In this document: in pieces, positions 32,593 through 59,740 of the stretch
Position numbering within the stretch: the stretch's first letter is position 1
Layout: each line of letters opens with the position of its first letter
Assembly (NCBI GenBank): GCA_900770195.1
Contig: CAAGJI010000041.1
Location: 43,719 to 107,718 of the forward strand
Reading direction: 5' to 3'
Length of the DNA stretch: 64,000 bases
Origin: Oscillospiraceae bacterium
GTDB lineage: Bacteria; Bacillota; Clostridia; Oscillospirales; Ruminococcaceae
Position numbers and translations under genes: made by a program
The notes under the pieces: model-generated
The model's input: only the letters and a program-made list of their open reading frames with translations
The model's database searches: none
Told to the model about the DNA's origin: nothing

Positions 32593-32606
32593 TTTTTCTC
32601 CTTTTT

Positions 32607-32624
32607 GATTAGCATATGCTAATC
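32607..32624. promoter_or_regulatory. Perfect 18-bp palindrome GATTAGCATATGCTAATC in the 5-prime UTR of the 4xFMN gene (candidate operator)
   Basis: The palindrome lies 4 nt upstream of the SD. A half-site GATTAGCATA recurs at 32816-32825. Confidence 0.4.
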
Positions 32625-32700
32625 TATGCATATTTTTTTAGTTTGACAGAAAAAACAGATAAATATATGCGTTAGCGTAAACTAACATAAACATAAAAAT

Positions 32701-32834: not shown

Positions 32835-33668
32835 CTATCTATTGTAATCAAAACTTGTACGTTCAGACTTAGCATCAGCTTTATTATTTTGATAGTATGT
32901 AGCAATATTAATTTCAATTGCTTCAGATAATGCTTCTGTTATTTCACTCCACTCGATTTTTCTCTGCAATTTACAACTGCAATAAAACAACAAACTCTCT
33001 CTTGCAATGCATCTTTGATTTACACACGACATATATAAGTTAACATCTAAATAATCCTTTTCTTCTTTGTTTTTCAATATTGATTTTATTAAATCAGTAA
33101 AATCAGGACTTGTTGCTTTTTCTCCTGAAAGAGAATAATTTCCATCAAGTGTTGAAAATCTATTGAAGGTTTTTTTAAATTCTTCAATACTGCTTGCTAT
33201 TATAATTTTTCCCGCTATTTTAGTGTATTTTGCAACCAGAATATATTCATCTGTCCACTCGCTTTTTTTAACAGAACATAATTCTAAAGTTTCATATGAT
33301 TCGGGTTTTTGTTCATTTGAATTTTCAAAACATTCCATTAGAATATCTTCAGCAGAAGAATTTTTCTTTTTTAAACAAAGGTAATATTCACAATCATTCT
33401 TTTCACTTAAAAGCAGAACTTCTTTATCAGATACCTGATTCAAAATATAAATTTCGTTATTTATTTTGGCAATTCCTGATGTAAAATACCAAGAATCACC
33501 ACTCTTTTTTAAAGAAAAACCGGAAACAATACCATCAGGATAATCTGAATACATATATTGACGTATTTTTTCAGAATAAATATTTTGCTTATTTAACGTT
33601 TCAGCCCGAAGAACTGTACCATTTTTAAAGTCAATGTTCAATTTTCTGCCGCATTCAATTGTATTCAT
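32835..33668 (-). CDS. Hypothetical protein (277 aa), last gene of the AT-rich island operon
   Basis: Its start abuts the upstream gene (12-nt gap). No recognisable domains. Confidence 0.5.
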   Translation of the reverse strand: MNTIECGRKLNIDFKNGTVLRAETLNKQNIYSEKIRQYMYSDYPDGIVSGFSLKKSGDSWYFTSGIAKINNEIYILNQVSDKEVLLLSEKNDCEYYLCLKKKNSSAEDILMECFENSNEQKPESYETLELCSVKKSEWTDEYILVAKYTKIAGKIIIASSIEEFKKTFNRFSTLDGNYSLSGEKATSPDFTDLIKSILKNKEEKDYLDVNLYMSCVNQRCIARESLLFYCSCKLQRKIEWSEITEALSEAIEINIATYYQNNKADAKSERTSFDYNR

Positions 33669-33679
33669 ATAATCAACCT

Positions 33680-36529: not shown

Positions 36530-36542
36530 TATATTTTCCTCC

Positions 36543-38630: not shown

Positions 38631-38649
38631 TTTCTATTTCTCCTTTAAA

Positions 38650-39159
38650 TTAATAATTTTTATCTGCGAATGCATCTGAACTTTTAACTTTTTCATCATT
38701 TTGTTGTGGTTCCTGATCTATTTCAGAAATGCCATTTTCATCAGAATTTTCATCTTTTGCTTCATCTGCATTTTTCTTATCTTCAACATCTGAATATAAC
38801 GGAACAACCTCTTTATGTATATCGAGTATTTTTGTATTCAGATAATCAAGCCTCTCTTTCAGAAAATATTTCTTTCTTTCATCATCTTCTTTTGATTTTT
38901 CCATTTTTTCTTTAATATCATTAATACTCTGTGAAAAAGATTCAAGGGAATTTTCTATCTTTTCAAGAAGTTCAGATTTTTTCTTCTCAAGCTTGTCTAT
39001 TTTACTTTGAAGTTCTTCTTCTTTTTTCTGATAATTATTTTTAAGCAAACCAATACTACTGTCAAGCGAATCAACTTCATTACAAAGTTCTTTATTAATT
39101 TCCGTCATCATATCAATAACTTTTTTTAAATCATTGATTGTTTCTTTATAATCCTGCAT
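38650..39159 (-). CDS. Coiled-coil protein (169 aa), acidic C-terminus
   Basis: Heptad-rich and K/E-rich (EELQSKIDKLEKKKSELLEKIENSLESF). Confidence 0.55.
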   Translation of the reverse strand: MQDYKETINDLKKVIDMMTEINKELCNEVDSLDSSIGLLKNNYQKKEEELQSKIDKLEKKKSELLEKIENSLESFSQSINDIKEKMEKSKEDDERKKYFLKERLDYLNTKILDIHKEVVPLYSDVEDKKNADEAKDENSDENGISEIDQEPQQNDEKVKSSDAFADKNY

Positions 39160-39178
39160 TTTATCAATACCTTTCTAT

Positions 39179-39466
39179 TTATTCAATTGCCTTAAGCACA
39201 GCATTACGCATATTCTTAATTTCAAGATCCTTTGATTTTCTTATTTTTTCAATCTCTGCGTCTTTTGATTCTCTTATTTCATTGATCTCTTTATTTTTAT
39301 CTCTTGTTAACTCTGCAATTTTATTATTTCTTTCTTCAATAATCTGATTTTTTTTATATTCGAAATTGGCCTCCATTTGATTAAAATCATTTTCAATTTC
39401 ACCAAGAATCTTATCTGCAATTGCTTTTAAATCGGCAATATTTTGCTTGTATGAATTAATATCCAT
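39179..39466 (-). CDS. Coiled-coil protein (95 aa)
   Basis: K/E-rich heptads. RBS GGAGG. TAATG stop/start overlap with the upstream Hsp70-like gene. Confidence 0.55.
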   Translation of the reverse strand: MDINSYKQNIADLKAIADKILGEIENDFNQMEANFEYKKNQIIEERNNKIAELTRDKNKEINEIRESKDAEIEKIRKSKDLEIKNMRNAVLKAIE

Positions 39467-40974
39467 TATATTTCCTCCACTATGATATTTTCTTTGCCAA
39501 GCGACTCATTTTTATGTCCATAAACCTCAGCTTCTATTCTGCCATCGTAACAGATTTTCAAGTCAAAAACTTCTGCTGTATCATATTTGCTGTCTGATAA
39601 ATCAAGATAACCTAAATATATTTTTTCAGATTTAGGAGTAAACTTCTGATAGAACTTCATATATCTTCTTCCATCATCAAATTTAGTTAATGTCAACGGC
39701 TTTTTTATTGTTTTATTTTCATATAACGTCTGCCTGTTAAGATAAACACCTGTATTTTCAAACTCGCCGACAATCTGATATGCACTTCTGTTTTCAAATT
39801 TAATATTTGTATTTTCTGACAGCATACCCGCATAATATGCTGCACCCAACGCAACATACCCCATATTTTCATCTTCATCAAAATCTCCTATTTCATCAGT
39901 TTCAAAATATTCTTCCAAAATATTTCGAAAATACGGTATACCCGATCCGCCTCCGATAAAATGTACACTTATTTCATCTTCATCTTTGTAAATATCTGAT
40001 TCTTCAAGCATATAATCAAACATTTTAACAAGTTTTTCTTTCAATGAATTTTTATTCAAGATGTCTTCAATTTCATCAGACGTGAAATGATAATTTATAT
40101 CTATGTTTTCGTTATTTCTTTTTATATAATACTCATCATCAACTTCATCATCTTCATCTGAATACATTCTGACTTTTTTATTATCAATCTCATGAACGAA
40201 ATGGTATCCACGTTCTTTCAAAAGTTTCCTTTCATTTGGTGTTACCGATGGAAAAATAATGTCATTTATAATGCTTTCTGTTAAATCACTTCCGCCATAT
40301 TTAATACCATATGATGAAAGAACTGTTACCTTGAAATTATCATCTATGCATTTGATTTTTATTACAGCGGCATCTATTGTACCTCCGCCAAAATCAAAAA
40401 TGAAAAAGTTTTTCTCATCTCCATCATCAGCATCTTCAAAGAAATCCTTTGTTTCTTCAAACGAAAAAAAAGCTGCAACAGGTTCAGATATTACTGCATC
40501 AACATTTATTTTTGCCAATTTAGCTGCTTTTTTAATTCGGTTTATCTGCATTTCTGAATACATAACAGGAAAAGTTATAACTGTCGTATTTGGAATATTT
40601 CCACCTTTTTTTGTAACCATTCTATTATATATCCAGGAAAATATTTCACCTGATAATTCAACTGCATCAGCTTCATATCCGTCGTGAAATTTTATATTCC
40701 AGTTTTCTTCGCATAAATGTCTTTTCACATTGTATACAAACTTCATTTTGTCTGCATCAATATCATAAAGCAGATTTTCTGCGGCTGAACCAATTTCAAA
40801 CTCATAATTTCCGTCTTTTCTTTTATTTCGTGTAATTATATTTGGTTCACATCTTTTTCCGTTTATATTATTTGACAACTTTTGCGGTGTAACTTTTTTA
40901 TTTTCATATGAAGCTACCTTCAGATTTGTTGTTCCGAAATCTATCGCTAATGAATAATTTATTTCTTTTGACAT
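39466..40974 (-). CDS. Divergent Hsp70-like ATPase (502 aa)
   Basis: AIDFGTTNLKVA, FIFDFGGGTIDAAV and FIGGGSGIPYF. Confidence 0.75.
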   Translation of the reverse strand: MSKEINYSLAIDFGTTNLKVASYENKKVTPQKLSNNINGKRCEPNIITRNKRKDGNYEFEIGSAAENLLYDIDADKMKFVYNVKRHLCEENWNIKFHDGYEADAVELSGEIFSWIYNRMVTKKGGNIPNTTVITFPVMYSEMQINRIKKAAKLAKINVDAVISEPVAAFFSFEETKDFFEDADDGDEKNFFIFDFGGGTIDAAVIKIKCIDDNFKVTVLSSYGIKYGGSDLTESIINDIIFPSVTPNERKLLKERGYHFVHEIDNKKVRMYSDEDDEVDDEYYIKRNNENIDINYHFTSDEIEDILNKNSLKEKLVKMFDYMLEESDIYKDEDEISVHFIGGGSGIPYFRNILEEYFETDEIGDFDEDENMGYVALGAAYYAGMLSENTNIKFENRSAYQIVGEFENTGVYLNRQTLYENKTIKKPLTLTKFDDGRRYMKFYQKFTPKSEKIYLGYLDLSDSKYDTAEVFDLKICYDGRIEAEVYGHKNESLGKENIIVEEI

Positions 40975-40986
40975 AATATTTCCCCA

Positions 40987-42270
40987 TTATCCAAATCTGT
41001 ATGCTGAACACGAACCCTTACATACAAATGAAGCCTTGTTGTCATCTTCATCAAAATAATTTATCATATACGGCTGTGCTTTGATTTCAAAAATTTTTCC
41101 ATGTTCCCTACGGTTTGAAGTTTTTATATAACTTGTTTCCATATTAATGCTATTGTCACCATTTGTAATTAAATCGCCAACTTTTATTTCCTTATTATAA
41201 AATCCGATTGAAGACAAATATTTATTCACAATTTCAAGAAACTCTATGTATTCGCTGTAATTATTCGCTATTCTGTCACATATTACCGGAATCACCTTTC
41301 CTGTAATTGAATTTTTTACAGCATTACCTATTATTGAAATAATTGTTTCAGATTTTTCATCATCATCAAGGTCATCAATATCTGCTTTTCTGATTTCATT
41401 TGCCAAATCTTTTTTATATTTTGCAAAAATTTTCAAATATATATCCTGATAAGATTTTTCCAATATTCCCTTATTCAAAAAACTTTCAATTTCAGAAATG
41501 TCAGCAACTTTTTTCAGATATTCATTTATTGCTTTATCATCGCTGTTTTCATCAATGCAAACCAGATTAATATTTTCCTTTAATATTGGAAATACAAAAT
41601 CAGCTGATTTGTATTCTTTTTCTACAGGTGCAGTTTCAGGTACAGCTTTTTCAGTTTTTGAAGAAGTTTTATTCTGTCCTTCTAAAGCTTCAACCCTATT
41701 TATAAGGCTTTCAAAAAGCTTATTCTGTTCAGATATTTTTTCTTCTAAACTTTTTATTCTTTTATCTTGTTTGTATACCGTGTTTTCCAACGATTCGATT
41801 TTCTGATTTTGATTTATAATTTCTTTTTTCTGTGTCTGACAAATATCTGCAAGCTGTTTTATATACTCCTTACATTTTTTTATTTCCCCGTTATAATCAG
41901 AAGAACCTGTATTGCCTTTTGCTGAAACAAAATCTGTTTTTTCAAGCGAATTAACTCTTGAATCAATTGATTCAACTTTCCTGTTTAATCTTTCAATGTC
42001 CTTATTTACATTTACTTCAATAACTTCATTCGGTGATGAAGTATTGGTGTGCTTTAATTCCTTGTAAATATCAGAAATTTTATTTTCAATTTTTAATTCA
42101 AGCCTATGCATGTCTATTGGCAATCTTTCTGAAACATTATATTTCAATTTGCTAATATCATCATTTATTGTGTCAACATTTTCAAACAACTCGCTGATAT
42201 TCTGATTGCCATAAATATTAAATACAGCCAGCTTTGATATTTTAATCTTTTTATATTTTTTCTTGCTCAT
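40987..42270 (-). CDS. Coiled-coil protein (427 aa)
   Basis: Long heptad region (EIINQNQKIESLENTVYKQDKRIKSLEEKISEQNKLFESLINRVEALEGQ). The start is the ATG at 42270 with an AGGAGA RBS. The ORF-track extension to 42435 is unsupported. Confidence 0.55.
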   Translation of the reverse strand: MSKKKYKKIKISKLAVFNIYGNQNISELFENVDTINDDISKLKYNVSERLPIDMHRLELKIENKISDIYKELKHTNTSSPNEVIEVNVNKDIERLNRKVESIDSRVNSLEKTDFVSAKGNTGSSDYNGEIKKCKEYIKQLADICQTQKKEIINQNQKIESLENTVYKQDKRIKSLEEKISEQNKLFESLINRVEALEGQNKTSSKTEKAVPETAPVEKEYKSADFVFPILKENINLVCIDENSDDKAINEYLKKVADISEIESFLNKGILEKSYQDIYLKIFAKYKKDLANEIRKADIDDLDDDEKSETIISIIGNAVKNSITGKVIPVICDRIANNYSEYIEFLEIVNKYLSSIGFYNKEIKVGDLITNGDNSINMETSYIKTSNRREHGKIFEIKAQPYMINYFDEDDNKASFVCKGSCSAYRFG

Positions 42271-43018
42271 ATTTTTTCTCCTCATACTTGTAATAAGTGC
42301 AAATGCCGTCAATTCTTCGTATTTCCGTTTTTTCTTCGTCTGAATCATAACAATAAATACAATATGGCAAACTATTAAAATAACAAATTTCGCCATGTTT
42401 CGATCTATCATTTGTAGATTTCTGATGTGACCCACTGGTAGAAATATGTTCTGATTTTACACTGTTTTCTATATCTTCAGGAACAAAAAAAACTATATTT
42501 GATAAATAGCAAACTATTTTTTTCCCTATTTTCTTCCATTCCTGTTCTTCTTTAAGCATAGACGATTCAAGAATCTTTTGCAATGAATCTCTCATCTCAT
42601 CAATATATATTTCTGTAAGTTCTGCAGATTTTTCATCTGGATCTATTTTATTTTTATCTAACTGCTTAAACATTTTTTCTTTGCATTTATTCGCTCTTTT
42701 AAGTAATAAAGCAACAATCTTTTCTTTATTTTCAGGTAAATTATGACCGTATTCAAATAAAGATTTTAAATCAGGATTTTCGTCTCCAAGCAATTTTTCT
42801 ATTATTGACTTATATTCGTCATCTGTTTTGTCAGGTGGAAAAAGGTATGGATAGGAACTTTTTTGTTTCACAAACATTTCACGTTCATTTTCCTTAAATT
42901 GATACCTGACAATTTCATCTTTATACAAATTATATTTTTTTTGCAAACGAATAATCTCTTTTTTTCTGTCTGATGAATAAGCACTGTATTTTGTCTTTAA
43001 ATCATTTAAATTTAACAT
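42251..43018 (-). CDS. Hypothetical protein (255 aa) with Cys-rich C-terminus
   Basis: C-terminal CYFNSLPYCIYC ... GICTYY, possibly a zinc ribbon. RBS GGAGGG. Confidence 0.5.
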   Translation of the reverse strand: MLNLNDLKTKYSAYSSDRKKEIIRLQKKYNLYKDEIVRYQFKENEREMFVKQKSSYPYLFPPDKTDDEYKSIIEKLLGDENPDLKSLFEYGHNLPENKEKIVALLLKRANKCKEKMFKQLDKNKIDPDEKSAELTEIYIDEMRDSLQKILESSMLKEEQEWKKIGKKIVCYLSNIVFFVPEDIENSVKSEHISTSGSHQKSTNDRSKHGEICYFNSLPYCIYCYDSDEEKTEIRRIDGICTYYKYEEKKYEQEKI

Positions 43019-43036
43019 AATCCCTCCTGCTGCTTA

Positions 43037-44608
43037 TTAAGATGCTGACACTTTGTCAGAATAAACAAGTTCTGAATCACTGTAAACGTCAACATCAATA
43101 TTAAGAGAGCCATCTTTTTCAAAAATAAATGTCAGTTTTATTTCAGTATTTTCTCTTTTTAAACCTGATGGAAGATTAATTACTGAATATTTTGCAACAT
43201 CTATTCCTTCACTCATAGCACGATTTGCTTTTGGATAAATCTGAATATCGTGTTCGTAAAGCTTCACTTCCAATTTTTCCTGATTATCACTATTAAGATA
43301 AAATATTTTTTCAACTTTTGTAGGAAGTGCAGTATTTATTGGAACTAACGGAATAAATTTATCAGGTATAGGGCCATCCTGTGCTACAGTTCCAAAAACA
43401 CAACTTGTTATATTTGAAATTTCATTAAGCTTATTTTCATTTAAAACAACTGCACCCTTTGAAATAAGTTCTGTTACTTCACCTAAAGTATCATCATCAA
43501 GAGTAATATATTTTTCAAGTTCTTTCTGAACTAAAGGTATATTTGAACTTCCTCCTGCTAAAACAATTCTGTCAATTGCTATGTTGTTATCCTCTGCATA
43601 TTTTAAACTGTCTTTTGTTATATCAATTGAACGTTTTACCAAAGGAGATATTATTTTTTCAATATCATCTACTGTAAATTCATATATATATGGTTCTAAT
43701 CCGTCTTCAGTGCGTATATTCAAAAAGTCATCGTTGCTTTCATATTCTATTTTTACATTTTCAGCACAATCAATAATCCCTCTTAAATTATCACGATACA
43801 TATCATATGGAAGATCACCATCATAAACATCTTCTTTCATAATTCTGTAAAGCCCTTTTGCGTCTTCATCAAATTCCATATCAAGATCAAATTTATCATT
43901 TACTTTCTGAAGAATATCATCTGCTATTGCCAAAGTAACGTTATTACCGCCAAATTCCTTATCACCATTTGTATATATCTGTTCATATTTAATATGCGAG
44001 TCAACTTTTGTTGCTTTCATTATCGAAATATCAAAAGTACCGCCGCCAAAGTCATAAACAAGAATTGTGCATTCATCTTTATCATCTTCAATTGTCTGAT
44101 ATGCAGCTGCCGCTGCTGCTGTTGGTTCAAAAATCAATTCAACATTATTAAGTCCTGCTTCAATTGCAGCATCTTTTATACTTTCTTTTGCTGACGGACT
44201 GAATTTTGCAGGCACAGTAATAACAGCTTTTTCAATAAAACCTTCAGCCGGACCAAACGATTTCATAATTTTGTCCTGAACATTTTTTATTATCTGAGCG
44301 ATAAAATATCCCGTTGCTTTTTTAGGAGTTACTCTTATTCTGCTACCGTCCATAGCTTTTGTAATATATCTCTCATTCTGTTCATTAAGACGGCTTTTAA
44401 AGCTGACAATAGGTTCAACATTGTTTGCAGCAGCAAGTGAAAGAGCTTCTTTTCCTATCACAAATTCATCTTCTGTTTTAAAATATAACGCTGTAGGTAT
44501 GCTTTTACTGCTATCTTTGTCACGCAGGCAAACAATTCTTCCCTTTTTATCTTTGTAAGAAACAACAGTATTTGTAGTTCCGAAATCTATTCCTATGGTT
44601 TGTCCCAT
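43037..44608 (-). CDS. Hsp70-family ATPase (DnaK/HscC-like NBD plus beta-SBD, no lid)
   Basis: IGIDFGTTNTVVSY, ILVYDFGGGTFDISIM, FEPTAAAAAAY and IVLAGGSSNIPLVQ. RBS AAGGAG. Confidence 0.8.
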   Translation of the reverse strand: MGQTIGIDFGTTNTVVSYKDKKGRIVCLRDKDSSKSIPTALYFKTEDEFVIGKEALSLAAANNVEPIVSFKSRLNEQNERYITKAMDGSRIRVTPKKATGYFIAQIIKNVQDKIMKSFGPAEGFIEKAVITVPAKFSPSAKESIKDAAIEAGLNNVELIFEPTAAAAAAYQTIEDDKDECTILVYDFGGGTFDISIMKATKVDSHIKYEQIYTNGDKEFGGNNVTLAIADDILQKVNDKFDLDMEFDEDAKGLYRIMKEDVYDGDLPYDMYRDNLRGIIDCAENVKIEYESNDDFLNIRTEDGLEPYIYEFTVDDIEKIISPLVKRSIDITKDSLKYAEDNNIAIDRIVLAGGSSNIPLVQKELEKYITLDDDTLGEVTELISKGAVVLNENKLNEISNITSCVFGTVAQDGPIPDKFIPLVPINTALPTKVEKIFYLNSDNQEKLEVKLYEHDIQIYPKANRAMSEGIDVAKYSVINLPSGLKRENTEIKLTFIFEKDGSLNIDVDVYSDSELVYSDKVSAS

Positions 44609-44627
44609 TACTTACTCCTTAACAAAA

Positions 44628-47600
44628 TTATTTTAAATTTACTTCAACCGGATTCAAAAGATATTTTTCATTATCTATTTCATTTTCTTTTGCGACTGCA
44701 TATTCAATTGCATAAGGTTTTGTTGCTCTTATGTAAATTGCAACATCTTTGTCACTGAAAGTCTGCTCTATTCTGAGATTTTTTCGGATAATACTTGAAT
44801 CAGAAATACTCAATCCGCCGTTAAGTGCAACAGGAAGCGATGTATAATAAATTTCAAATTTATCTACTTTTGCATTTTTGAACTTTATCCATTTGCCATA
44901 TTCAGAACCCATTTTCATTATAACTTTAAACATTTCTCTTTTGCTTATTCCAACAAAATATTTAAATGGTATTTCATCTTCAACATCATTGTCACTTAAC
45001 ACAAGTATCTTTCCGTCTTCACGACTGTCTATAAGCCCGTATACAACACCTGTTTTGCCTGTTGGTCTTGTCAATGAAGTTTCATCTGTTTTCTTTCCTG
45101 CCTGCTTCTGAAGCTTGTCAGCGTCTTCTGTACCTAAAGGTGGCATAAGGAACAAATTTTTCTTAAAATCAACCTTGCATATTTTACAAATATCAGGGAA
45201 ATATTCGTTGATATACTGATTAAATACGTTTTCTACTATCGGAGATTTTCCTGCATTGCCTGCAATGAATATATAAATATTACTGATTTTTGTATTCTTT
45301 GTCTTGAATTTTTCTGAACTGATTGCCTGTAAGAATCCGTGGCAGAAATTATTGATACCCTCTTCGATTTGCTTTGAAAGTATTCCAAGCAAATCAACAT
45401 GAATGTTGTCGTTCGGTGATTCAAGCTTTAATTCTATCTCTTTAAATTCTCCTTTAACATCAAATAAATTAACTTTCATCAAACCTGAATTTAAAGCCTC
45501 AAAAGAAGATTCTATTTCATAAACAGGGAATTTTTCATTATCGCTGCTGTTGTTTTTAAGATATTTGTCAGGTGAAACGCCATACTTTTCACACAATGCT
45601 GTAACATTTTTTTTGTATTCTTCTGATTCAACACCATATTCTTTCTTTACTTCATTTATGTAATAGTCAAGCTCTGCTTTTGCTTTTTCACCTAATTCTT
45701 TTGTTTCACCATCAACCAGATATATGCTTTCTTCCATAAACGGTCTGAGTGCTTCCGCTAACTGCTTTGTATTTCTCTTTGCAATCTGAGTATCTTTTAT
45801 AAGTTCATCGTGTCCATCGAACACGTCGCACTGTACAGGTTTTGTAAATGTTATTCTGTTTTCAAGAAGTACTTTTTTATTTGCCTTAAACACTTCATAT
45901 GCAAGCAATTCAAGAAGATTTTCACCGCCAAGATATTTTGAACCTGCTGCACCAAAATGTTCAATTACATAATCATAATCTTCTTCATCGAAATCATCTT
46001 CATCTGCATATCTCCATGTGCCGTAATCGAAATCAGTTGTACCGCCGCCAAAATCGAAAATACCATACAGAATAGAACTGTCGTCCCCAGGGGCACAGTT
46101 GAATTCTTTCAAAGCACAAACCGCATAACTTGCCGGTTCTCCTGCACCTGCTTTCACTTCAAATTTTTTCATTGTCGCTTCATCATTAAGAACTGTTTCA
46201 GGCAATGATTTTTTCAAACCTTTTGTAAAGCTTTCAAGTATCTTTTCTCTTACCTGCTTTTCGTAAGTTACAGGGAAAGACATAATATAACGCAGGTATA
46301 TTTTATTCGTCATATTATTTATGTATAAGCCGAGGTAGTAAGCATATATTTCGATAGGGTCGAAATCATCTTCTTTTAAATCAACATATTTATAAAGTTT
46401 CTTTTCTGTTTTTGTATTCAGTGATTTAATTGTTTCCGCTGTTTCTTTTGTTGTATTTCCGCACCACTGTTTCAAATTGTAAAAATATGAATAGAAATTA
46501 TCGCTGTCTTTCTTTTCCGTTGTATTTTTAAAATTATAATTTGCTGTATGTGAAACTTTTATATCTTCCCATGATGTGTCAGGTCTTCCTGCTTTAGCTG
46601 AATATGCCTGCATAAAAGATTCTATATCATCAAATTCAATAACAGTCGGGTTTTCGTAATCTTCCTTTTTCGCTTCCTCGCCTAATTTATTTTTACCAAT
46701 ACGCAAAAGGTGAGTAACATCTCTGCCGTTCTGATATCCCACTACTGTTGAACGTGTACCAAAATCTATACCGATAATACCATCATCAAGTACATCTGCA
46801 AGAGGGTTGCGGGCGATAAGTTTTTCAGTAAGGGCAATTTCTGTTCCCTCCTGACTTGATTTTTCCCATAAATCCCAATGACCTGCACCGTCGTCTGTAA
46901 GGATAGTTTCTTCATATGTATCTCTGTCGCATCTTTTTTTGTCAACATTAAGCAGTTCAGATTTTAATTTTTCTGTATCATAATTGTTTTTATATAACCC
47001 TTTTAACGTTTGATAAAACTCACTTTCTTTAACATCATTGTATTTGTAAAGAATTTTACCCTCAGATGCAGTTATTATCTTTTTATCGTACATATCTGCC
47101 AGCATTTTATAAATCCCTTTGAGAGAACTTTTGCTTGGAATAAGTCCGTATTTAATAAAGGTAATCAGCCTTCTTTTTGATAACCCTCTTTTTACAGGAA
47201 TTTTAATGGAATAACTATCACCCCAGCAGTTATAATTTCCATTATGTATATTTAAACGCCTTTCTGAATTTCCGCTATAATAGCTAAAAATGCAATTTAT
47301 CAAATTACCATTTGCATTTTTTACACAATCATCTTTTATAAGCGGATTGGAAGATTTATAGGTGTAGAATAAATCATACGCTTCGGAATAATTCATAGAC
47401 TTTCCTTCGCCTATACCGTCCATTTCATAATCATAACGATCATAAGGACAAACGGCACGTGTTGAGTCTGTTATCAATATATTTTTACTCTGAACAAAAT
47501 ATAATTTTTTATTTTCAATCTTAACCCATTCATTATTTTTAACAATAGAATCCAGATCCTCTTCAACAACATTAATCAGACCTATAAGTAAATCTTTTGC

Positions 47601-47654
47601 TTCTATTTCTTCATCCGTCAGATAAATTTTATCAACGCTTTTTGTTTCTTCCAT
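44628..47654 (-). CDS. Large divergent Hsp70-superfamily ATPase (1008 aa)
   Basis: IIGIDFGTRSTVVGY, GIFDFGGGTTDFDYG and FIAGNAGKSPIV, embedded in long N- and C-terminal extensions. RBS GGAGGT. Confidence 0.75.
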   Translation of the reverse strand: MEETKSVDKIYLTDEEIEAKDLLIGLINVVEEDLDSIVKNNEWVKIENKKLYFVQSKNILITDSTRAVCPYDRYDYEMDGIGEGKSMNYSEAYDLFYTYKSSNPLIKDDCVKNANGNLINCIFSYYSGNSERRLNIHNGNYNCWGDSYSIKIPVKRGLSKRRLITFIKYGLIPSKSSLKGIYKMLADMYDKKIITASEGKILYKYNDVKESEFYQTLKGLYKNNYDTEKLKSELLNVDKKRCDRDTYEETILTDDGAGHWDLWEKSSQEGTEIALTEKLIARNPLADVLDDGIIGIDFGTRSTVVGYQNGRDVTHLLRIGKNKLGEEAKKEDYENPTVIEFDDIESFMQAYSAKAGRPDTSWEDIKVSHTANYNFKNTTEKKDSDNFYSYFYNLKQWCGNTTKETAETIKSLNTKTEKKLYKYVDLKEDDFDPIEIYAYYLGLYINNMTNKIYLRYIMSFPVTYEKQVREKILESFTKGLKKSLPETVLNDEATMKKFEVKAGAGEPASYAVCALKEFNCAPGDDSSILYGIFDFGGGTTDFDYGTWRYADEDDFDEEDYDYVIEHFGAAGSKYLGGENLLELLAYEVFKANKKVLLENRITFTKPVQCDVFDGHDELIKDTQIAKRNTKQLAEALRPFMEESIYLVDGETKELGEKAKAELDYYINEVKKEYGVESEEYKKNVTALCEKYGVSPDKYLKNNSSDNEKFPVYEIESSFEALNSGLMKVNLFDVKGEFKEIELKLESPNDNIHVDLLGILSKQIEEGINNFCHGFLQAISSEKFKTKNTKISNIYIFIAGNAGKSPIVENVFNQYINEYFPDICKICKVDFKKNLFLMPPLGTEDADKLQKQAGKKTDETSLTRPTGKTGVVYGLIDSREDGKILVLSDNDVEDEIPFKYFVGISKREMFKVIMKMGSEYGKWIKFKNAKVDKFEIYYTSLPVALNGGLSISDSSIIRKNLRIEQTFSDKDVAIYIRATKPYAIEYAVAKENEIDNEKYLLNPVEVNLK

Positions 47655-47656
47655 AA

Positions 47657-48331
47657 TTATAATACCTCCACTAACGATTTTTTAACTGTTTTTCCTGATA
47701 CTGTATATTTGTATCCTTTTATTATTACCTTATCTATCATACCTGTATGTTTTTTATTTTTCTCAATATGAAAATTATCGTCCAAATGACAATTATTATC
47801 TATCATAGAATATTCAGGATTCATACGGCACATTATTTCAACAAATTCATTAAATAGATCTGTTACCTGCGGTTTAAGACTGCTGAGTTCATAACTAATG
47901 TAGTCATAATAACTGTTTAAATTCTTTTCGTTTGAAATGCTTGCAATAAACGAAACAGGGTCTTCCAATGATATTTTGACTTTTTCTTTGTATTCTTCAA
48001 GCACTTCACAAGATTTTTTGTATAAGTCAAAAATATTCTTGAAATATTCCTCATAATCAGAAAGCTGATTTTTTGCTGATTCGAGTTCTGATTTACTTTT
48101 TTCAAGTTCTGATTTACTTTTTTCAAGTTCATCTTTTACTGATTTAAGTTCTGATTCTAACTCTTCTATTTTTGGGTTATCATCATTTTTATTTTCGGAC
48201 AAGTATTTTTTTATACGTTCATCAAAACGTTTATCACAAATTTTTTCACAAACTTTTTCACAAACTTTTTCACAAACTTTTTCAATTTCTTCCCTTGTCC
48301 ATTTTTTTGATTTTTCTTCTTCAACTGCCAT
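47657..48331 (-). CDS. Coiled-coil protein (224 aa) with (EKVC)n repeat
   Basis: EKVCEKVCEKVCEKIC motif, then SELEKSKSELESAKNQL heptads. Confidence 0.55.
   Translation of the reverse strand: MAVEEEKSKKWTREEIEKVCEKVCEKVCEKICDKRFDERIKKYLSENKNDDNPKIEELESELKSVKDELEKSKSELEKSKSELESAKNQLSDYEEYFKNIFDLYKKSCEVLEEYKEKVKISLEDPVSFIASISNEKNLNSYYDYISYELSSLKPQVTDLFNEFVEIMCRMNPEYSMIDNNCHLDDNFHIEKNKKHTGMIDKVIIKGYKYTVSGKTVKKSLVEVL
48235..48282. repeat. Four tandem copies of a 12-nt unit (cacaaacttttt), in frame, encoding EKVC
   Basis: The repeat was read directly from the sequence. Unit 1 carries one substitution. Confidence 0.8.
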
Positions 48332-51582: not shown

Positions 51583-52065
51583 TTATTCTACTTCAATATA
51601 CTGATCATAATTTCCGTTTTTCTGTACAAGATAAAGCTCAAATAAACCGTTATCGTTTTCACCATTTAAATTTTCAGATGGGAAATTTTCAGTAGGAATT
51701 TCATATCCTTCTGTATAATCAATAACAAACATATTTTCTATTTCATAAGATCTAAGCATTTCACTGTTTGAAGTACTTACATATGTTTCAAGTTTTACTT
51801 TTCGATAAATAAGATCCGAATCTGTTTCCTTAGACCAATTTGCAACATCACAAGTAGCTTTCTTGTTATTTGCTGTTATTCTTCCGATTACCCTTATTTC
51901 AGCTCGCACATCATTACTTCTTGCAATTGCGTCATCATTTAATGTGTTTGATTTGTAAGAAGCAGCGATAATATCTTCTTTGCCCTGATGTTCATTTTTC
52001 ATTGAAGATAAAACAATTTCTCCGCCCTTTGAGTCTGTTATTGTTAATCTGTATCCAAGTGCCAT
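51583..52065 (-). CDS. Hcp / tail-tube-like protein (160 aa), tentative
   Basis: Its size, its MA..hhhhI.D.KG N-terminus and its position between a large protein and the spike all fit a tube protein. The call is weak. RBS GGAGG. Confidence 0.4.
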   Translation of the reverse strand: MALGYRLTITDSKGGEIVLSSMKNEHQGKEDIIAASYKSNTLNDDAIARSNDVRAEIRVIGRITANNKKATCDVANWSKETDSDLIYRKVKLETYVSTSNSEMLRSYEIENMFVIDYTEGYEIPTENFPSENLNGENDNGLFELYLVQKNGNYDQYIEVE

Positions 52066-52069
52066 AATA

Positions 52070-54310
52070 TCATTCCTCCGTATTTTCTATTTCTAAATTA
52101 TCAAACTTGTCTTCTTTATCATTGTTAGTAAATTTAACATATGAATAAAGTTTTCCATCTTTTTCTTTACATCCGAATTCTTCCCCATTATAAAGCGGAT
52201 TATTAATGCATCCATCATAACGGTTCCATCTATGATCTGATTTATATTTGTCAAGATTTTTCTTTGAAATTGTTGATTCACCATTTGCAGCTTCATAAAA
52301 AATAAAATCTTTAACTAAAGTTGTAAAAATTCTATTTTCACCCTTAGCCATATTTCTTGCATATTTCACGAATGAATTTTTGACCTTTTCATTGTTATAA
52401 TATCCACAGCAATCGAAAAAGAAACCAAATGGTTCTTCGCTAAGTTCATCAATTAAATCCTTATCATAAGAAAGAATCTCTTCACAATTCATATTTGATA
52501 TAACTTTGTATTTGTTGTCTGAATCCTCAAAATCAAATCTTACACATACCTTAGGAAGATCTTTATTTACATTAAATTTCATCTTTTCAAGCTGCCTGCT
52601 GTCAAGTGACTTTATCACAAGTCCCGCTGCAACATATGGTGCATCTAAATACAGACCGGGATTCTGAATTGTTTCTCCAGCTGCTACCTGTATATCGCCT
52701 GCCTGTATTCCTGACATAAGTGTAAAATTCGGATAAGCAAAGACTGAATATCTGCTATTAATTATGTCTAACTTCTTTTTATATGTATCCAAAACACTCT
52801 TATTCATCTTACTAAAACCGGTTTTTTCACATCCTTTGTAACCAAAAAATGTTGTACACTTTGCTTCAGAAAGAATATCTATTATCTGTTTTGCAGTATC
52901 CAAAGAAATCAGATCCTGTTTTACTTCTGCTTCATCATCATCGTCAAGATTAATATCATCATCTATTTCAAAATCAACATTTTCATTTTGCTCAATATCA
53001 ATAACTTCGTCTTCATCATTTACAGATTCATCAGCATCAGGAATATCAGGAGTATAGAGTCTGCCTGCATTATCTCTGTTAACCAGATCTTCGTCATAAA
53101 TTTGCGGAAGCACAGCAAACCAGATTCTTTTTTCTATATTCCCATTTATGTTGGTCATATATTTTTTAAAATTTTCTTTTATATCTTTATCACTTACTAT
53201 TTCATCTGCTATACAATTAGCAATTATAACAGAACAGTTTCCGCCTGCATTATCGAATAAAGCCTTAACATCTATAATTTTTTCTATTATCTTGTTAATT
53301 GCTTTTAAAAGACTATCCTGTGATGCTTTATAAAAAGCTTTTTGAACCTCATATCTTTTCTTGAGTTTTGGAATGTCTTCACTCGCAACAATACCCGTAT
53401 TATCCGAATATGCTGAGATTACAAGTTTCTTAGTGTAAGAATCACTTTCTGAAGTATTCTCGTTGCCCCCAATGTTAGATTCCAGCAATTTAGTTGCCTG
53501 ATTATTAGCTCTTGTTTCAAGACTTATTGTCTGATTTACATTATTATTAACATCAGTAACTAAAACTTTTTCCTTTACTATATCACCGTCAGAATTATAT
53601 GCCAGTCTGTAAGTATCTCTTTTTGTTGTACTAATTTCTACGGAAGATGACTTTCCATTTTCGTCAGAGTTGATTCCCAGCTTTTTTTGCAAATCCGCAA
53701 CATTTAAACATAAAAGAGCTGTCGGATTATCCCTATATGTTTCGTTGATTTCTGTTATAGTATTTTTTATTTTTTTAGCATAAGATTTCTGTAAAGCCGT
53801 ATTTTTATTATCTTTTGCTTCCAGACACTTCTGAACTAAATAAAGATATTCTCTTCTTTTACTTTTTATCTCTTTAAGCATAGTACTTGGAGATATAAGC
53901 TTTGAAAAACAACTATAGTCAAATTCATAATTTGATTTTCCTGCAACAGCTTTTTTTTCATACATATCAATTGCTGCTTTATAAAAAGCAGTTCTTTCAA
54001 ATTTCATCGGAAGAGCTTCCGGAATATCCGATGGATCTGTTGAATAAACAAAATATCCACCATTATCGTCCTTCTGAAATCCCTGATATAAATCTGGAGC
54101 AAATCTTTCAAGAAAATCATCAAAACTGCTTACTTCAAGTCCTACAACATCAAACTGTTTGTAGTTAAATGTATCTGTATCAGGATCAACAGCACCCTTT
54201 AATGCATTTAAAATTGAAAGAGGTCTCTCTTTGCCAGCAATTTTGGCTGATACTTTATCATTGAATTTTTCAAGGACAAGTACTCGGTTAATACTATCAA
54301 TTTTTCCCAT
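52070..54310 (-). CDS. Large hypothetical protein (746 aa), candidate sheath-like component
   Basis: The true start is the ATG at 54310 with an AAGGAG RBS (ORF-track TTG at 54346). An acidic central linker (DEDEVIDIEQNENVDFEIDDDINLDDDDE) is present. The sheath assignment rests on gene order only. Confidence 0.5.
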   Translation of the reverse strand: MGKIDSINRVLVLEKFNDKVSAKIAGKERPLSILNALKGAVDPDTDTFNYKQFDVVGLEVSSFDDFLERFAPDLYQGFQKDDNGGYFVYSTDPSDIPEALPMKFERTAFYKAAIDMYEKKAVAGKSNYEFDYSCFSKLISPSTMLKEIKSKRREYLYLVQKCLEAKDNKNTALQKSYAKKIKNTITEINETYRDNPTALLCLNVADLQKKLGINSDENGKSSSVEISTTKRDTYRLAYNSDGDIVKEKVLVTDVNNNVNQTISLETRANNQATKLLESNIGGNENTSESDSYTKKLVISAYSDNTGIVASEDIPKLKKRYEVQKAFYKASQDSLLKAINKIIEKIIDVKALFDNAGGNCSVIIANCIADEIVSDKDIKENFKKYMTNINGNIEKRIWFAVLPQIYDEDLVNRDNAGRLYTPDIPDADESVNDEDEVIDIEQNENVDFEIDDDINLDDDDEAEVKQDLISLDTAKQIIDILSEAKCTTFFGYKGCEKTGFSKMNKSVLDTYKKKLDIINSRYSVFAYPNFTLMSGIQAGDIQVAAGETIQNPGLYLDAPYVAAGLVIKSLDSRQLEKMKFNVNKDLPKVCVRFDFEDSDNKYKVISNMNCEEILSYDKDLIDELSEEPFGFFFDCCGYYNNEKVKNSFVKYARNMAKGENRIFTTLVKDFIFYEAANGESTISKKNLDKYKSDHRWNRYDGCINNPLYNGEEFGCKEKDGKLYSYVKFTNNDKEDKFDNLEIENTEE

Positions 54311-54314
54311 TAAA

Positions 54315-54893
54315 CTATTCTCCTTTAAATATTTTTCTAAATCCAAGTCCGATAAAATTTTCTTTTTTCAACTTTTCATACAATATATCAGTAACATAAA
54401 CTGCATCTGAAGTTGAACCGAGAATGCGAAAAATATTATATCTTCCGCACGCACCTGGAATTATTATTGGATTTTCTATATTATAAAATGGAACTATTCC
54501 ATCATTATAATCATATTCATCTGCATCAATTATACCGCTTTTCTCAAAATCAATGCAATCAATTCTTGGAACTGAAACAATCCAGAAAATTTCTTCAATT
54601 CCCACAATATCATCTGAAATAATTACTTTTTTGTAAAACAAATAGTTTACTCTGCAGCTATCCAGAAAAGACTTTAGTTTGTCTGAAAAAAAAAGCAAAT
54701 CTTCACAACGCATTATATCAGGAATATCTATACCTCCTGATTCATCAATTGATATTGTTTCAGCGTCATCATTCAGCATCCATAATTCATCTCTGTAAAA
54801 ATGCGTTTTCAATTTTCTTATATTATCATTTATCAACGGAATTATATAATTTTCCGATATTGATAAAATATTTATTTTATAAATTTCTGACAT
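54315..54893 (-). CDS. Hypothetical protein (192 aa), putative immunity protein for the upstream AHH toxin
   Basis: It lies immediately downstream of the toxin gene with a 1-nt gap and has an RBS GGAGA. It is acidic with no TM. Confidence 0.45.
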   Translation of the reverse strand: MSEIYKINILSISENYIIPLINDNIRKLKTHFYRDELWMLNDDAETISIDESGGIDIPDIMRCEDLLFFSDKLKSFLDSCRVNYLFYKKVIISDDIVGIEEIFWIVSVPRIDCIDFEKSGIIDADEYDYNDGIVPFYNIENPIIIPGACGRYNIFRILGSTSDAVYVTDILYEKLKKENFIGLGFRKIFKGE

Positions 54894-54894
54894 T

Positions 54895-56559
54895 TTAATT
54901 CTCCAAAATATTATCTATTCTTTCTCTTATTATTCTTACAGGAGATTCATAATACATTTCTCCATTTTCTCTGCCTTCTGCAAATAAAATTATTTTCTGT
55001 TCATTTTTTTCACAGTAATCAGATACAGACTTTTCCACAATAGTATCATTAATAACATATTCCCTGTCTTTATCGATTTTCCACGGAATTACATATTCAC
55101 TATCTGTAAGATTTATAAAATACCTGACATTTTCAGCAAATTTTATAAATGAAATATCGTCTTTTATTTCAAATTCATCTAAATTTGAAAACAATATTTT
55201 GTAATTGTCTTTCTGAAATCTTGTAACATTTAATTTCACAGCATAAAATGAACTTTTTTTGTATTTTTCAAATTTATATATAATAATAATCTTTTTTCTT
55301 TTTGGAACATCAAAAGCAAATTTAAAAGCTTCCTTTGAAACATAAAATGGATAACTTTTTTTATATCCCTTTTCAAAGTCAAGTAATTTGTTCATAATCC
55401 TATTTGAAATATGATTCATATTACTTATAAATCGCTTTCTTTTTTCATCATAATTACTTTTGCGGCAGGAATTTTTTTTGTATCTGGATTCAAGCAAATT
55501 AATCTCATGGTCAACTGCTTCAACATAATTTCTGTAAAATTCTATATCTGATGAAGAAACTTTTTCAAGATACTTGCTGATTTCATCAATAGTTTCAGGT
55601 TCTAATGTATATTTATGTCCTCCCACGTGCCATTGCTGTTTCATCAAATCCATCGCAATATATCCATTTGCCTGCTTGACAGTTCCTTCTTTCCCTTCAA
55701 AGGAATGTGTTGTTGGCAATAAAACACAATTATCCGCATTATTTATATCATATTTGTAAAAATTGGCAAGCTTAACAAGATAAGGATGTTTAGCGAAAAT
55801 CTGATTTCCGGAAATAATATGATGTGCTGCCTTACTCCAATTTCCCTCTGTTGATTCCTCATTCTTTTCTTTATTTTTCTCTATATATGTATCATATTTC
55901 TCTTTATATTGATTTTTAAAATTATTTTCAAGTTCTGACGCAGAATTATTAATAGCCGACGCAGAATGTGAAGCTTTTATATAATCACATTTATCTCTTT
56001 CGCAGCAGTTCTCGTAATCACAAAGAGCGTATTCACAATAAAATTTATAATCTGTTTTTTTCTTATCATCATTTTCAATTTCAGATTTTCTTTCTTTTTT
56101 TAACTGATTTTCTTCATTTAAACTATCTGCATTATGTTCTGAAGTATCGCTGAATGAATCTGAAATTGTTGTTTTATTCCCTATATTTGCAATATCTCCA
56201 GCTTCATAAAGAAAAGAAGGACTTTTTTTCTTTTCATTTATTTTAGACGGAACAGGAGCGGATAATTTTTTAATTTTTGAACCCAGAGGACATAATATAT
56301 AAGATTTATCAGTTAACGCTGACTTTCCCTGTATTAATAATTTTGAACTTGTATTGCACCATAAACCACTTACAACTGCACACGAACAAGGTACATTATT
56401 TTGTTTAGGGCAAATTCCCGGAATTTGAAGTTTCAATGTTGAACAATTTGTCAAAACTTTAGATTTATCGGAAAATGCTTTTGCTAAAGCAACTGAAGCG
56501 GAAAAGGTTGTAGTACTGCACTCGCATTTAAAAATACAATTTTCAGTCAACTCTTTCAT
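54895..56559 (-). CDS. PAAR-like (DUF4280) - AHH nuclease polymorphic toxin
   Basis: N-terminal Cys-rich DUF4280 pattern (KCECS ... IPGICP ... CSCAVVSGLWCNTSSKLLIQGKSALTDKSYILCPLGSKI). AHH signature AAHHIISGNQ ... NCVLLP ... HVGGHKYT. The start is the ATG at 56559 with a GAGGGGAG RBS. The ORF-track extension has none. Confidence 0.7.
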   Translation of the reverse strand: MKELTENCIFKCECSTTTFSASVALAKAFSDKSKVLTNCSTLKLQIPGICPKQNNVPCSCAVVSGLWCNTSSKLLIQGKSALTDKSYILCPLGSKIKKLSAPVPSKINEKKKSPSFLYEAGDIANIGNKTTISDSFSDTSEHNADSLNEENQLKKERKSEIENDDKKKTDYKFYCEYALCDYENCCERDKCDYIKASHSASAINNSASELENNFKNQYKEKYDTYIEKNKEKNEESTEGNWSKAAHHIISGNQIFAKHPYLVKLANFYKYDINNADNCVLLPTTHSFEGKEGTVKQANGYIAMDLMKQQWHVGGHKYTLEPETIDEISKYLEKVSSSDIEFYRNYVEAVDHEINLLESRYKKNSCRKSNYDEKRKRFISNMNHISNRIMNKLLDFEKGYKKSYPFYVSKEAFKFAFDVPKRKKIIIIYKFEKYKKSSFYAVKLNVTRFQKDNYKILFSNLDEFEIKDDISFIKFAENVRYFINLTDSEYVIPWKIDKDREYVINDTIVEKSVSDYCEKNEQKIILFAEGRENGEMYYESPVRIIRERIDNILEN

Positions 56560-56637
56560 ATTTACTCCCCTCACCCAAAACAACAGATATAATAAATTTA
56601 ACGCAAAAATTAATTCAGAGTGTGTTAAAATAAATAT

Positions 56638-56652
56638 AAAAAAAAAAAAAAA
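56638..56652. repeat. Homopolymeric A15/T15 tract in the island operon leader
   Basis: It lies between the island promoter and the first RBS. Confidence 0.9.
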
Positions 56653-56673
56653 CAATGTACACTCCCACAAAAT

Positions 56674-56702
56674 ATTATACACTGTTTTCTTCTAAAAGTC
56701 AA
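56674..56702 (-). promoter_or_regulatory. Sigma-A consensus promoter for the island operon
   Basis: On the minus strand: TTGACT, a 17-bp spacer, then TG-TATAAT. Confidence 0.55.
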
Positions 56703-56933
56703 GTAGGTATGCAAATATTATCTACTTTTTGCGAATTTTGTAATGAAAATAAAGTGTATTGCCTCTTGGCTATTATTTTTACAAACCAAAATAAAAATTT
56801 TCCTTCTTAATTATTTATTCGCTGAATACTCAAATATAATTCTATCAAAAAAATTTGAAGCTCACAAATCACAAGCATCTTCTCATTCCCAATAAATATA
56901 ATAACACATTTTTAAACATATATAAATATAAAA

Positions 56934-56971
56934 CAGTTCCGAAAAAAAATTAAATTTTCGGAACTGTTTTT
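56934..56971. terminator. Strong bidirectional hairpin terminator in the intergenic region
   Basis: 12-bp perfect stem cagttccgaaaa / ttttcggaactg with a 9-nt loop. T-runs on both sides. Confidence 0.55.
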
Positions 56972-57120
56972 AATTGACTAAATAATATTTTTAGACGATC
57001 TGCTTAATTATGATTTTATATCAACAGATTTTTCCCTGAAATATCTTTTTGAATTATAAAAATAAATCCCTATCAAAATTATGATTTAATCTGCCGGAAA
57101 ACTTTTTATATATAAAAAAA

Positions 57121-57150
57121 ATAAGAGGCAGAAACTGCCTCTTATTTTGT
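57121..57150 (-). terminator. Terminator of the GH26 gene
   Basis: Stem aagaggcag / ctgcctctt with loop aaac. On the minus strand it is followed by TTTTTTTT. Confidence 0.6.
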
Positions 57151-57168
57151 ATTTATTCATATTGAAAG

Positions 57169-59703: not shown

Positions 59704-59740
59704 TTCAAAGCCCTCCATCTTAAGCTAATATTCCAATACC

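Follow-up and report, generated by a model that had tools for sequence, protein, structure and literature searches.

The locus described here raises the question of what a two-gene unit at the edge of a low-GC island in a Clostridia genome does, and by what means its product could reach a target. The unit lies at positions 54315-56559 of a 64,000-nucleotide stretch of DNA (hereafter the window) from contig CAAGJI010000041.1 of an Oscillospiraceae bacterium (assembly GCA_900770195.1), and this interval is filled by two minus-strand open reading frames (ORFs), a putative toxin gene (54895-56559) and a small ORF (54315-54893) for its putative immunity protein. Our analysis indicates that the first ORF probably encodes a PAAR-like spike-tip DNase that would be neutralized in the producing cell by the Imm11-family product of the second, and that would be expelled into neighboring cells on a VgrG/Hcp shaft by contraction of a sheath encoded in the same island. 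The two genes and the parts of the toxin are the following (aa, amino acids; nt, nucleotides).

54895..56559, minus strand: toxin gene, 554 aa, with a PAAR-like head, a linker, an AHH nuclease and a family-specific C-terminal extension
54315..54893, minus strand: immunity gene, encoding a 192-aa acidic protein of the Imm11 family, 1 nt past the toxin stop
56260..56559, minus strand: DUF4280/PAAR-like spike-tip cone (aa 1-100), all beta, with cysteines C12, C50, C58 and C90
56038..56259, minus strand: linker (aa 101-174), of low complexity and variable length, predicted to be disordered
55315..56037, minus strand: AHH region (aa 175-415), made up of a cysteine cluster, the nuclease core and a helical extension
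55600-55869, minus strand: AHH-type HNH/EndoVII core (toxin aa 231-320)
54898..55314, minus strand: C-terminal domain (aa 416-554), with the order beta-beta-beta-alpha-beta-alpha and an RNase H-like fold

The original prediction had claimed for this DNA an N-terminal DUF4280 cysteine pattern, an AHH nuclease signature and an adjacent small acidic ORF as the immunity gene, and our analysis bears out all three. The head of the toxin matches the Pfam DUF4280 model (PF14107) at aa 11-97 (28.0 bits against a gathering cut-off of 26.3, E = 3.5e-6) and has a PAAR-type conical beta fold. In an alignment of 31 homologues that reaches down to 24% identity, C90 shows no variation, and conservation is 90% or more for C12, C50 and C58; the four conserved cysteines of DUF4280 proteins form a metal site (Lays 2016, PMC5349215). 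The quoted nuclease motifs are also present, namely AHH (aa 245-247), NADNCVLLP (aa 274-282) and QWHVGGHKY (aa 309-317). The residues H246, H247, N273, N277, Q309, W310, H311, H315 and Y317 are invariant in homologues down to the same identity, and A245 is at least 90% conserved. The signature residues described for Tox-AHH are [AG]HH, N, H, H and Y (PMC3482391), and the window protein is predicted to bear an AHH nuclease in which every one of them is invariant. The Pfam comparison itself gave a divided outcome: DUF4280 scored above its cut-off, and AHH (PF14412, aa 231-320, E = 1.6e-4) fell just below it, with 22.0 bits against 22.3, though the AHH model matches 28 of the 31 homologues (E <= 0.01, best 5.8e-8); the DUF4280 model matches 26. 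Full-length homologues (550-600 aa) number 78 in all, with identities of 24-100%, and one that is 87% identical carries the NCBI label 'AHH domain-containing protein'.

A structural model of the toxin, predicted by AlphaFold from the 31-sequence alignment with a mean predicted local distance difference test (pLDDT) score of 77, divides into four parts: aa 1-100 form a beta-rich head, aa 102-171 a disordered linker, aa 180-415 a confidently modeled region of helices and nuclease, and aa 420-550 the C-terminal domain. The linker residues 102-171 have pLDDT values below 50, and their columns are unalignable across homologues; aa 175-415 are modeled at pLDDT 80-97, with the AHH motif on a strand (aa 242-247) and the NCVLLP motif on another (aa 278-283) that is followed by a helix, both at high pLDDT. 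A Foldseek search with the whole model returned a PAAR-like match and otherwise weak RNase H-fold matches, and a profile search of the PDB with the AHH region returned only a designed protein, a chance match. Just before the AHH domain we observed a cysteine cluster of the form C-x4-C-x4-CC-x4-C (aa 175-191, window 55987-56037, minus strand), composed of C175, C180, C185, C186 and C191, of which C180 and C191 do not vary. The cluster may form a small knuckle that binds metal and lies outside the Pfam AHH model.

The small ORF begins 1 nt after the toxin stop (the toxin ORF opens with the ATG at 56559 and closes with the TAA at 54895; the junction reads TAA-A-ATG), has an isoelectric point (pI) of 4.53 and matches Pfam Imm11 (PF07791) at aa 67-188 (33.3 bits against 22.1, E = 3.7e-8). 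Its orthologues in four related loci (L001-L004) carry precomputed Imm11 matches, and an Imm11 gene directly follows the toxin gene in every toxin-bearing locus that we analyzed. A catalogue of toxin systems lists Imm11 as the immunity family that goes with Tox-AHH, Tox-HNH and Tox-SHH (PMC3482391), and its pairing with AHH is also documented elsewhere (PMC12077181). In Myxococcus xanthus, the AHH protein MXAN_0050 is a metal-dependent DNase, able to degrade DNA in vitro. It is bound by the Imm11 protein MXAN_0049, and its delivery requires type VI secretion (the T6SS) and a PAAR protein. The Myxococcus pairs combine a basic toxin with an acidic immunity protein, the same charge pattern as in the window, where the toxin has a pI of 8.2. 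The assignment of the 192-aa Imm11 protein as the putative immunity partner of the window toxin is therefore supported at the level of sequence.

The toxin gene, the Imm11 gene and the gene that follows them are packed as in an operon, with 4 nt between the stop of the small ORF and the next gene. The genes downstream of the pair are the following.

52070..54310, minus strand: contractile sheath homologue, 746 aa, with large helical and acidic insertions, 4 nt past the immunity gene
51583..52065, minus strand: Hcp-like tube protein, 160 aa
50173..51567, minus strand: VgrG-like spike protein, 464 aa, with a gp27/GPD-like N-terminal part, a gp5 OB fold and a C-terminal beta-helix
48332..50160, minus strand: two conserved genes of unknown fold (384 aa and 225 aa), always located after the VgrG gene

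The proposal that the island delivers an effector fused to its spike tip is strengthened, because the next three genes after the pair are those for a sheath homologue, a tube protein like Hcp, and a VgrG. The sheath went undetected in Pfam, NCBIfam, PHROGs, PADLOC and the PDB searched by sequence, and was revealed by fold comparison only; it is a single chain whose fold is nearer to phage and extracellular contractile injection system (eCIS) sheaths than to TssC. A third homologue search, run with a six-sequence sheath alignment, returned the same 18 close relatives and no additions. The 160-aa protein on its own has no Pfam match; a 35-sequence profile of its family had a single match in the PDB, the Hcp1 structure 6bdc_A (E = 0.0012), and Pfam TssD was matched by two of six family members (E = 0.0024) and by a homologue from the sister class of loci (class B) described below (E = 0.0022). 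With moderate confidence, we regard this protein as a predicted homologue of the Hcp tube. The spike protein matches Pfam Phage_base_V (7.8e-11), more weakly Phage_GPD, and NCBIfam VgrG_rel. A six-sequence profile of its family recovered the T6SS VgrG structures 8gra_I (5.8e-12) and 9jg8_G (7.5e-10) from the PDB, as compared with values of 0.17 and 0.72 for Pvc8 and Afp8. The 384-aa and 225-aa proteins had no matches in Pfam, NCBIfam, PHROGs, PADLOC or the PDB by sequence, and are candidate baseplate or cap parts.

A metagenome scan was seeded on the 746-aa sheath gene, and 100 loci were annotated with hidden Markov models of the families (related loci are cited here by L numbers). About 45 loci keep the order toxin, Imm11, sheath, Hcp, VgrG and then two conserved genes (about 430 and 215 aa) whose fold is unknown. 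Their sources are Oscillospiraceae, Lachnospiraceae, other Clostridia and numerous Selenomonadaceae (Negativicutes), among them the isolate Anaerovibrio lipolyticus An883. The ~215-aa gene is followed by an annotated Hsp70 gene in three loci (L002, L003 and L004), and ORFs of the same size occupy this place in two more (L013 and L006). Both AHH and Imm11 are present in all of the approximately 45 toxin-bearing loci, and no locus carries another toxin domain. Across 23 non-redundant loci, pairwise identities correlate with those of the sheath at Pearson coefficients of 0.92 for AHH, 0.86 for Imm11, 0.89 for Hcp and 0.90 for VgrG, and the AHH and Imm11 identities correlate with each other at a rho of 0.74. 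Since the AHH domain is constant and co-diverges with the sheath, the window toxin appears to be a fixed, dedicated effector and not a member of a cassette-swapping family, and the term 'polymorphic' that had been applied to it does not hold: what varies among these loci is presence or absence, plus one exchange.

Loss of the module is seen in L064 and L076, which are about 90% identical in DNA to L067 in the flanks. Each has a clean deletion of about 1.7 kb that takes in the linker end, the AHH domain, the C-terminal extension and Imm11 in full, with boundaries that differ between the two loci. Both retain a PAAR-like protein that stands alone (124-128 aa), the next gene's ribosome-binding site and an intact sheath gene; L069 likewise has a bare PAAR tip. 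The toxin domain and Imm11 have been lost together, so the machine would dispense with both, as expected for a cargo and its antidote. As for exchange, the sheaths of L052 and L100 are 59% identical, at 96% identity for AHH, 91% for Imm11 and 95% for the C-terminal extension. On these values, this is the sole clear case of a toxin-immunity module exchanged between systems.

The part of the toxin past the AHH domain, put at about 190 aa in the original prediction, measures 234 aa instead and is conserved. It consists of a helical extension (aa 321-415) that closes with a conserved SYPFYVSKEA motif, and a beta/alpha domain (aa 420-550). The extension is present in only 92 of the 1.84 billion representative proteins searched, nearly always in the same place, at the C-terminus of proteins about 550-620 aa long, whereas the other matches are shorter and fragment-like; judged by these matches, it is confined to the PAAR-AHH toxin family and occurs in no other architecture. 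A subclade (L034, L036, L039 and L051) stops after the SYPYYVSK helix, without the beta domain, and keeps AHH and Imm11. We considered whether the C-terminal domain could be a second, RNase H-like nuclease and rejected this as the likeliest reading, because the homologue alignment shows no conserved acidic residues in it and because the subclade that bears AHH and Imm11 lacks it. It would instead be an optional, non-catalytic RNase H-like domain that serves as a loading, packing or DNA-binding module. The toxin-immunity pair is in itself an ordinary PAAR-nuclease effector with its Imm11 partner, and its novelty is this conserved extension.

The island as a whole extends over 32835-56559 (minus strand), about 24 kb with 18 proteins. 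Its remaining features are the following.

56565..56576, minus strand: ribosome-binding site GGGTGAGGGGAG, purine-rich, 5 nt ahead of the ATG at 56559, read from the sequence
56674..56702, minus strand: promoter-like site TTGACT-17 nt-TATAAT, with 11/12 matches, about 115 nt upstream of the toxin ATG
57118..57148, minus strand: intrinsic terminator of the upstream GH26 mannanase gene, a 14-bp stem followed by a T run, marking the upstream edge of the island
32835..48331, minus strand: remainder of the island, with five Hsp70-superfamily ATPases, coiled-coil proteins and unknowns

The GC content of the island is 26-31%, as compared with 36-45% in its flanks. On one side it is flanked by a CBM35-GH26-dockerin mannanase (57169-59718, minus strand) and on the other by a protein with four FMN_bind domains (30895-32631, minus strand); the dockerin of the mannanase points to a cellulosome-type, Ruminococcus-like host. 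In the window the pair does come first in the island, as had been described, and the upstream terminator, the promoter-like site and the drop in GC, from 0.36-0.40 to 0.26-0.31, all agree with this. The description does not apply to L002 and L004, where an orthologue of the 1008-aa Hsp70-like protein of the island lies upstream of the toxin gene. The TTGACT-17-TATAAT site is the top-scoring one in 54000-57400, a region in which the total of promoter-like sites is not above that of shuffled controls, and as the putative toxin promoter it is suggestive only. A longer toxin ORF from a GTG at 56682 was also considered; it was rejected because all 31 aligned homologues begin at the methionine encoded at 56559, the public gene call is 554 aa long, and the -10 box would fall inside the added stretch, and the position of the ribosome-binding site likewise speaks against it.

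The five Hsp70-superfamily paralogues (window 33680-47654, minus strand) have 1008, 523, 502, 695 and 965 aa, the 695-aa protein being fused to a vWA domain, and are interleaved with coiled-coil proteins. Almost all of the 18 island proteins are acidic. A 224-aa coiled-coil protein (window 47657-48331, minus strand) has weak PHROG tape-measure matches (E = 0.002-0.005) and is a candidate length ruler, and divergent baseplate proteins could be present among the unknowns of the island. Two other identities for the island were tried and set aside. A remnant of a prophage tail or tailocin has no PHROG support, there are no capsid, terminase or lysis genes, and the synteny with Hsp70 is kept across classes; as for a known anti-phage defense system, PADLOC gave weak matches of the Hsp70 paralogues to a candidate model only.

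The scan also recovered class B, a sister class of about 30 loci, many of them from human-gut metagenomes (L080 4345-13391, L068, L078, L086 and about 25 others). Their genes come in the order vWA, an unknown of 247 aa, a sheath homologue of 725 aa, a pair of Hcp-like genes, DnaJ, two FHA genes and PP2C, and no VgrG, DUF4280 or AHH gene was found within 6 kb of them. The Hsp70 paralogues of the island, together with the DnaJ of class B, suggest that Hsp70-type chaperones service the sheath.

Further observations concern single loci. A gene for an RHS-repeat protein (Pfam, 8.9e-29) and a second VgrG-like gene of the same family are neighbors (L004 2-1871 and L018 11-406, both on the minus strand), about 8 kb upstream of a locus from Selenomonadaceae. 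The two resemble an auxiliary effector module, which would fit an antagonistic weapon. The frames of the sheath, VgrG or toxin are split in L012 (11314-13464), L022 (11021-14582) and L094 (4767-8190), through either decay of the system or assembly errors. Upstream of the Anaerovibrio lipolyticus locus there is an HTH-WYL-WCX regulator (L013 6822-7871, plus strand) that may be a sensor or regulator of the system.

The reading that we favor infers a DNase activity that Imm11 neutralizes, an assembly of the toxin on VgrG, export by contraction and a target cell, as follows. The DUF4280 cone would rest on the VgrG trimer at its blunt end, the VgrG gene lying three genes downstream, and the flexible linker of about 70 aa would tether to the cone the AHH-type HNH/EndoVII DNase, whose AHH histidines, N residues and H..H.Y motif would form a metal-dependent active site. 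The Imm11 protein, presumably coupled translationally to the toxin, would bind and block the nuclease in the producer and so protect sister cells. Toxin and immunity genes would be co-transcribed with those of the sheath, the Hcp-like tube and VgrG, and contraction of the sheath would drive the tube, spike, tip and DNase into a neighboring cell, where DNA would be degraded; the island would then encode a machine that injects other cells. As a speculation, the Hsp70-like ATPases may replace the AAA+ unfoldase (ClpV, Afp15) in assembly or in recycling of the sheath.

Several results weigh against this proposal. As regards the toxin, the AHH score of the window protein itself is 0.3 bits short of the Pfam gathering cut-off, two whole-protein fold searches of its model gave no HNH structure among the top matches listed, and a sequence search found no solved structural relative. 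The sheath model is of moderate confidence (pLDDT 66) and was built on a shallow 15-sequence alignment. As regards the island, a membrane-spanning segment (19-aa hydropathy window above 1.6) was found in none of the 18 proteins, and searches of Pfam, NCBIfam, PHROGs and PADLOC revealed no recognizable baseplate, membrane-complex, AAA+, tape-measure, tail-fiber or lysis gene in it. Finally, an interbacterial arms race normally leads to diversification of toxin and immunity proteins, the opposite of what we observed: the two are the best-conserved parts of the locus, AHH above all, they co-diverge with the sheath (r = 0.92 and 0.86), and their mean pairwise identities are 0.45 (AHH) and 0.41 (Imm11), as compared with 0.33-0.35 for the sheath, tube and spike.

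Part of this evidence is what a cytoplasmic, self-directed device would lead one to expect, and among the alternatives this one survives best, even if we consider it unlikely. Such a device would act in regulated cell death or abortive infection, firing inside the cell or through its own envelope on stress or phage attack; once Imm11 is removed, AHH would cut the DNA of the cell or of the phage, and the two proteins would be a toxin-antitoxin pair with no role in the protection of kin. It would resemble the cytoplasmic contractile systems of Streptomyces that mediate regulated cell death, and would account for an island without a membrane-spanning protein, membrane complex, tail fiber or lysis gene, and for a toxin and immunity protein that are conserved, not diversified, and co-diverge with the apparatus. 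The Hsp70, vWA and coiled-coil proteins of the island and the DnaJ, FHA and PP2C proteins of class B have a sensing or regulatory look, and the Hsp70 paralogues weakly match the PADLOC candidate-defense model. However, PAAR, VgrG, Hcp and sheath make up a puncturing or export device in every characterized case, and Imm11 proteins are characterized as immunity against incoming AHH toxins. The RHS-repeat protein and second VgrG near one locus are typical of an antagonistic effector module, there is no firm PADLOC match, and the loci examined do not lie within obvious defense islands.

Still less likely, in our estimate, are extracellular particles of the Afp, PVC or tailocin kind, freed by lysis and carrying the DNase as cargo, possibly against eukaryotes of the rumen or gut. 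That the island has no membrane complex speaks for them, but its VgrG and Hcp are nearer to those of the T6SS than to Pvc8 or Afp8, no tail fiber, tape measure, cap, AAA+ ATPase or lysis cassette is recognizable, and a dedicated immunity gene argues for a bacterial target. Least credible of all is that AHH-Imm11 is a selfish toxin-antitoxin cassette inserted behind a PAAR gene and not cargo of the machine, since its clean loss from L064 and L076 and its single exchange between L052 and L100 are outweighed by a nuclease fused in frame to PAAR in about 45 loci at 24-100% identity, by its co-divergence with the sheath (r = 0.92), and by a conserved extension found in no other architecture, in a survey that returned no cassette without PAAR or contractile injection system (CIS) genes.

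Export of the DNase into neighboring cells, the reading that we prefer, can be embedded in a broader proposal, which we hold tentatively and with slightly more doubt than belief. The loci may represent a previously unrecognized class of CIS in Bacillota, spanning monoderm Clostridia and diderm Negativicutes, that has the toxin as its dedicated warhead, a sheath that evades profiles, and Hsp70 ATPases (DnaJ in the sister class) in place of AAA+ proteins, and that may be the translocation system suspected from DUF4280 and VgrG genes. In practical terms, the pair flags a conserved cluster of about 24 kb with sheath, tube, spike, tip and a battery of Hsp70-like proteins and no recognizable baseplate, membrane or AAA+ parts. 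This locus is a concrete candidate for a phage-like translocation machine with DUF4280 tips, whose existence in Gram-positive bacteria has been a question since 2016 (PMC5349215, PMC8651086), complete with a predicted DNase cargo, a predicted antidote and natural variants without the toxin, and cultured carriers are at hand in Anaerovibrio lipolyticus An883 and Lachnospiraceae 29-84. If it is true that the Hsp70 paralogues service the sheath, its assembly or recycling would be achieved here in a new way.

Among known systems, the nearest kind are the PAAR and PAAR-like nuclease effectors of the T6SS, such as MXAN_0050/MXAN_0049, the PAAR-like-VRR-Nuc protein TseV of Salmonella bongori and BtpeA of Bacteroides, seen on VgrG (PDB 9jg9). 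They have in common with the window toxin a spike-tip PAAR-like domain that carries or recruits a nuclease, and a VgrG encoded nearby; the Myxococcus pair also shares the AHH-type HNH/EndoVII toxin with an adjacent acidic Imm11 gene downstream. Unlike these effectors, the window toxin comes from a Firmicute and a locus that is not a canonical T6SS, has a conserved 234-aa extension, and keeps its toxin domain invariant among related systems; in Myxococcus the PAAR domain is mostly a separate protein, whereas in the window the PAAR-like head is fused to the toxin. Polymorphic toxin systems (Zhang, de Souza, Anantharaman, Iyer and Aravind 2012, PMC3482391) have the same layout of trafficking domain, linker, toxin domain and adjacent immunity gene, and Tox-AHH and Imm11 both belong to that catalogue, but the window family has none of their C-terminal cassette diversity. 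No orphan toxin or immunity cassettes were found within the window.

The side-by-side arrangement of sheath, tube, VgrG and PAAR-like tip genes is shared with known CIS, including the T6SS (with the type iii systems of Bacteroidota), the type iv system of Amoebophilus, the eCIS Afp and PVC, and the cytoplasmic systems of Streptomyces. Of the parts of a canonical T6SS, the window locus has the sheath, Hcp tube, VgrG spike and PAAR tip, whereas TssE/F/G/K, TssJ/L/M and ClpV were not detected with Pfam, NCBIfam and PHROGs or by hydropathy among the 18 proteins. Compared with eCIS, the sheath, tube and spike are present and the gp25/gp6 baseplate, the Afp15 AAA+ protein, the cap and the fibers are undetectable by sequence. 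The fold of the window sheath is nearer to that of phages and eCIS, and the sequences of its VgrG and Hcp are nearer to the T6SS. Where known CIS have these other parts, the window locus instead has five ATPases of the Hsp70 superfamily, together with a vWA domain and coiled-coil proteins. A literature search on VgrG, Hcp or CIS with Hsp70, vWA and Firmicutes, in which few subscription journals were covered, returned no description of such a system, so that the machine of these gut Firmicutes is apparently undescribed.

In Firmicutes, DUF4280 genes have been reported beside Phage_GPD genes without T6SS or eCIS genes, and a not yet known translocation system of phage-like kind was proposed for them (PMC5349215, PMC8651086). 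The window locus matches the pattern of Lays 2016 and Zhang 2021, with a DUF4280 (PAAR_H2-type) gene near a Phage_GPD/VgrG-like gene. Those studies left the apparatus unidentified, whereas the window has a homologue of the sheath and one of the tube between its PAAR-like and VgrG genes.

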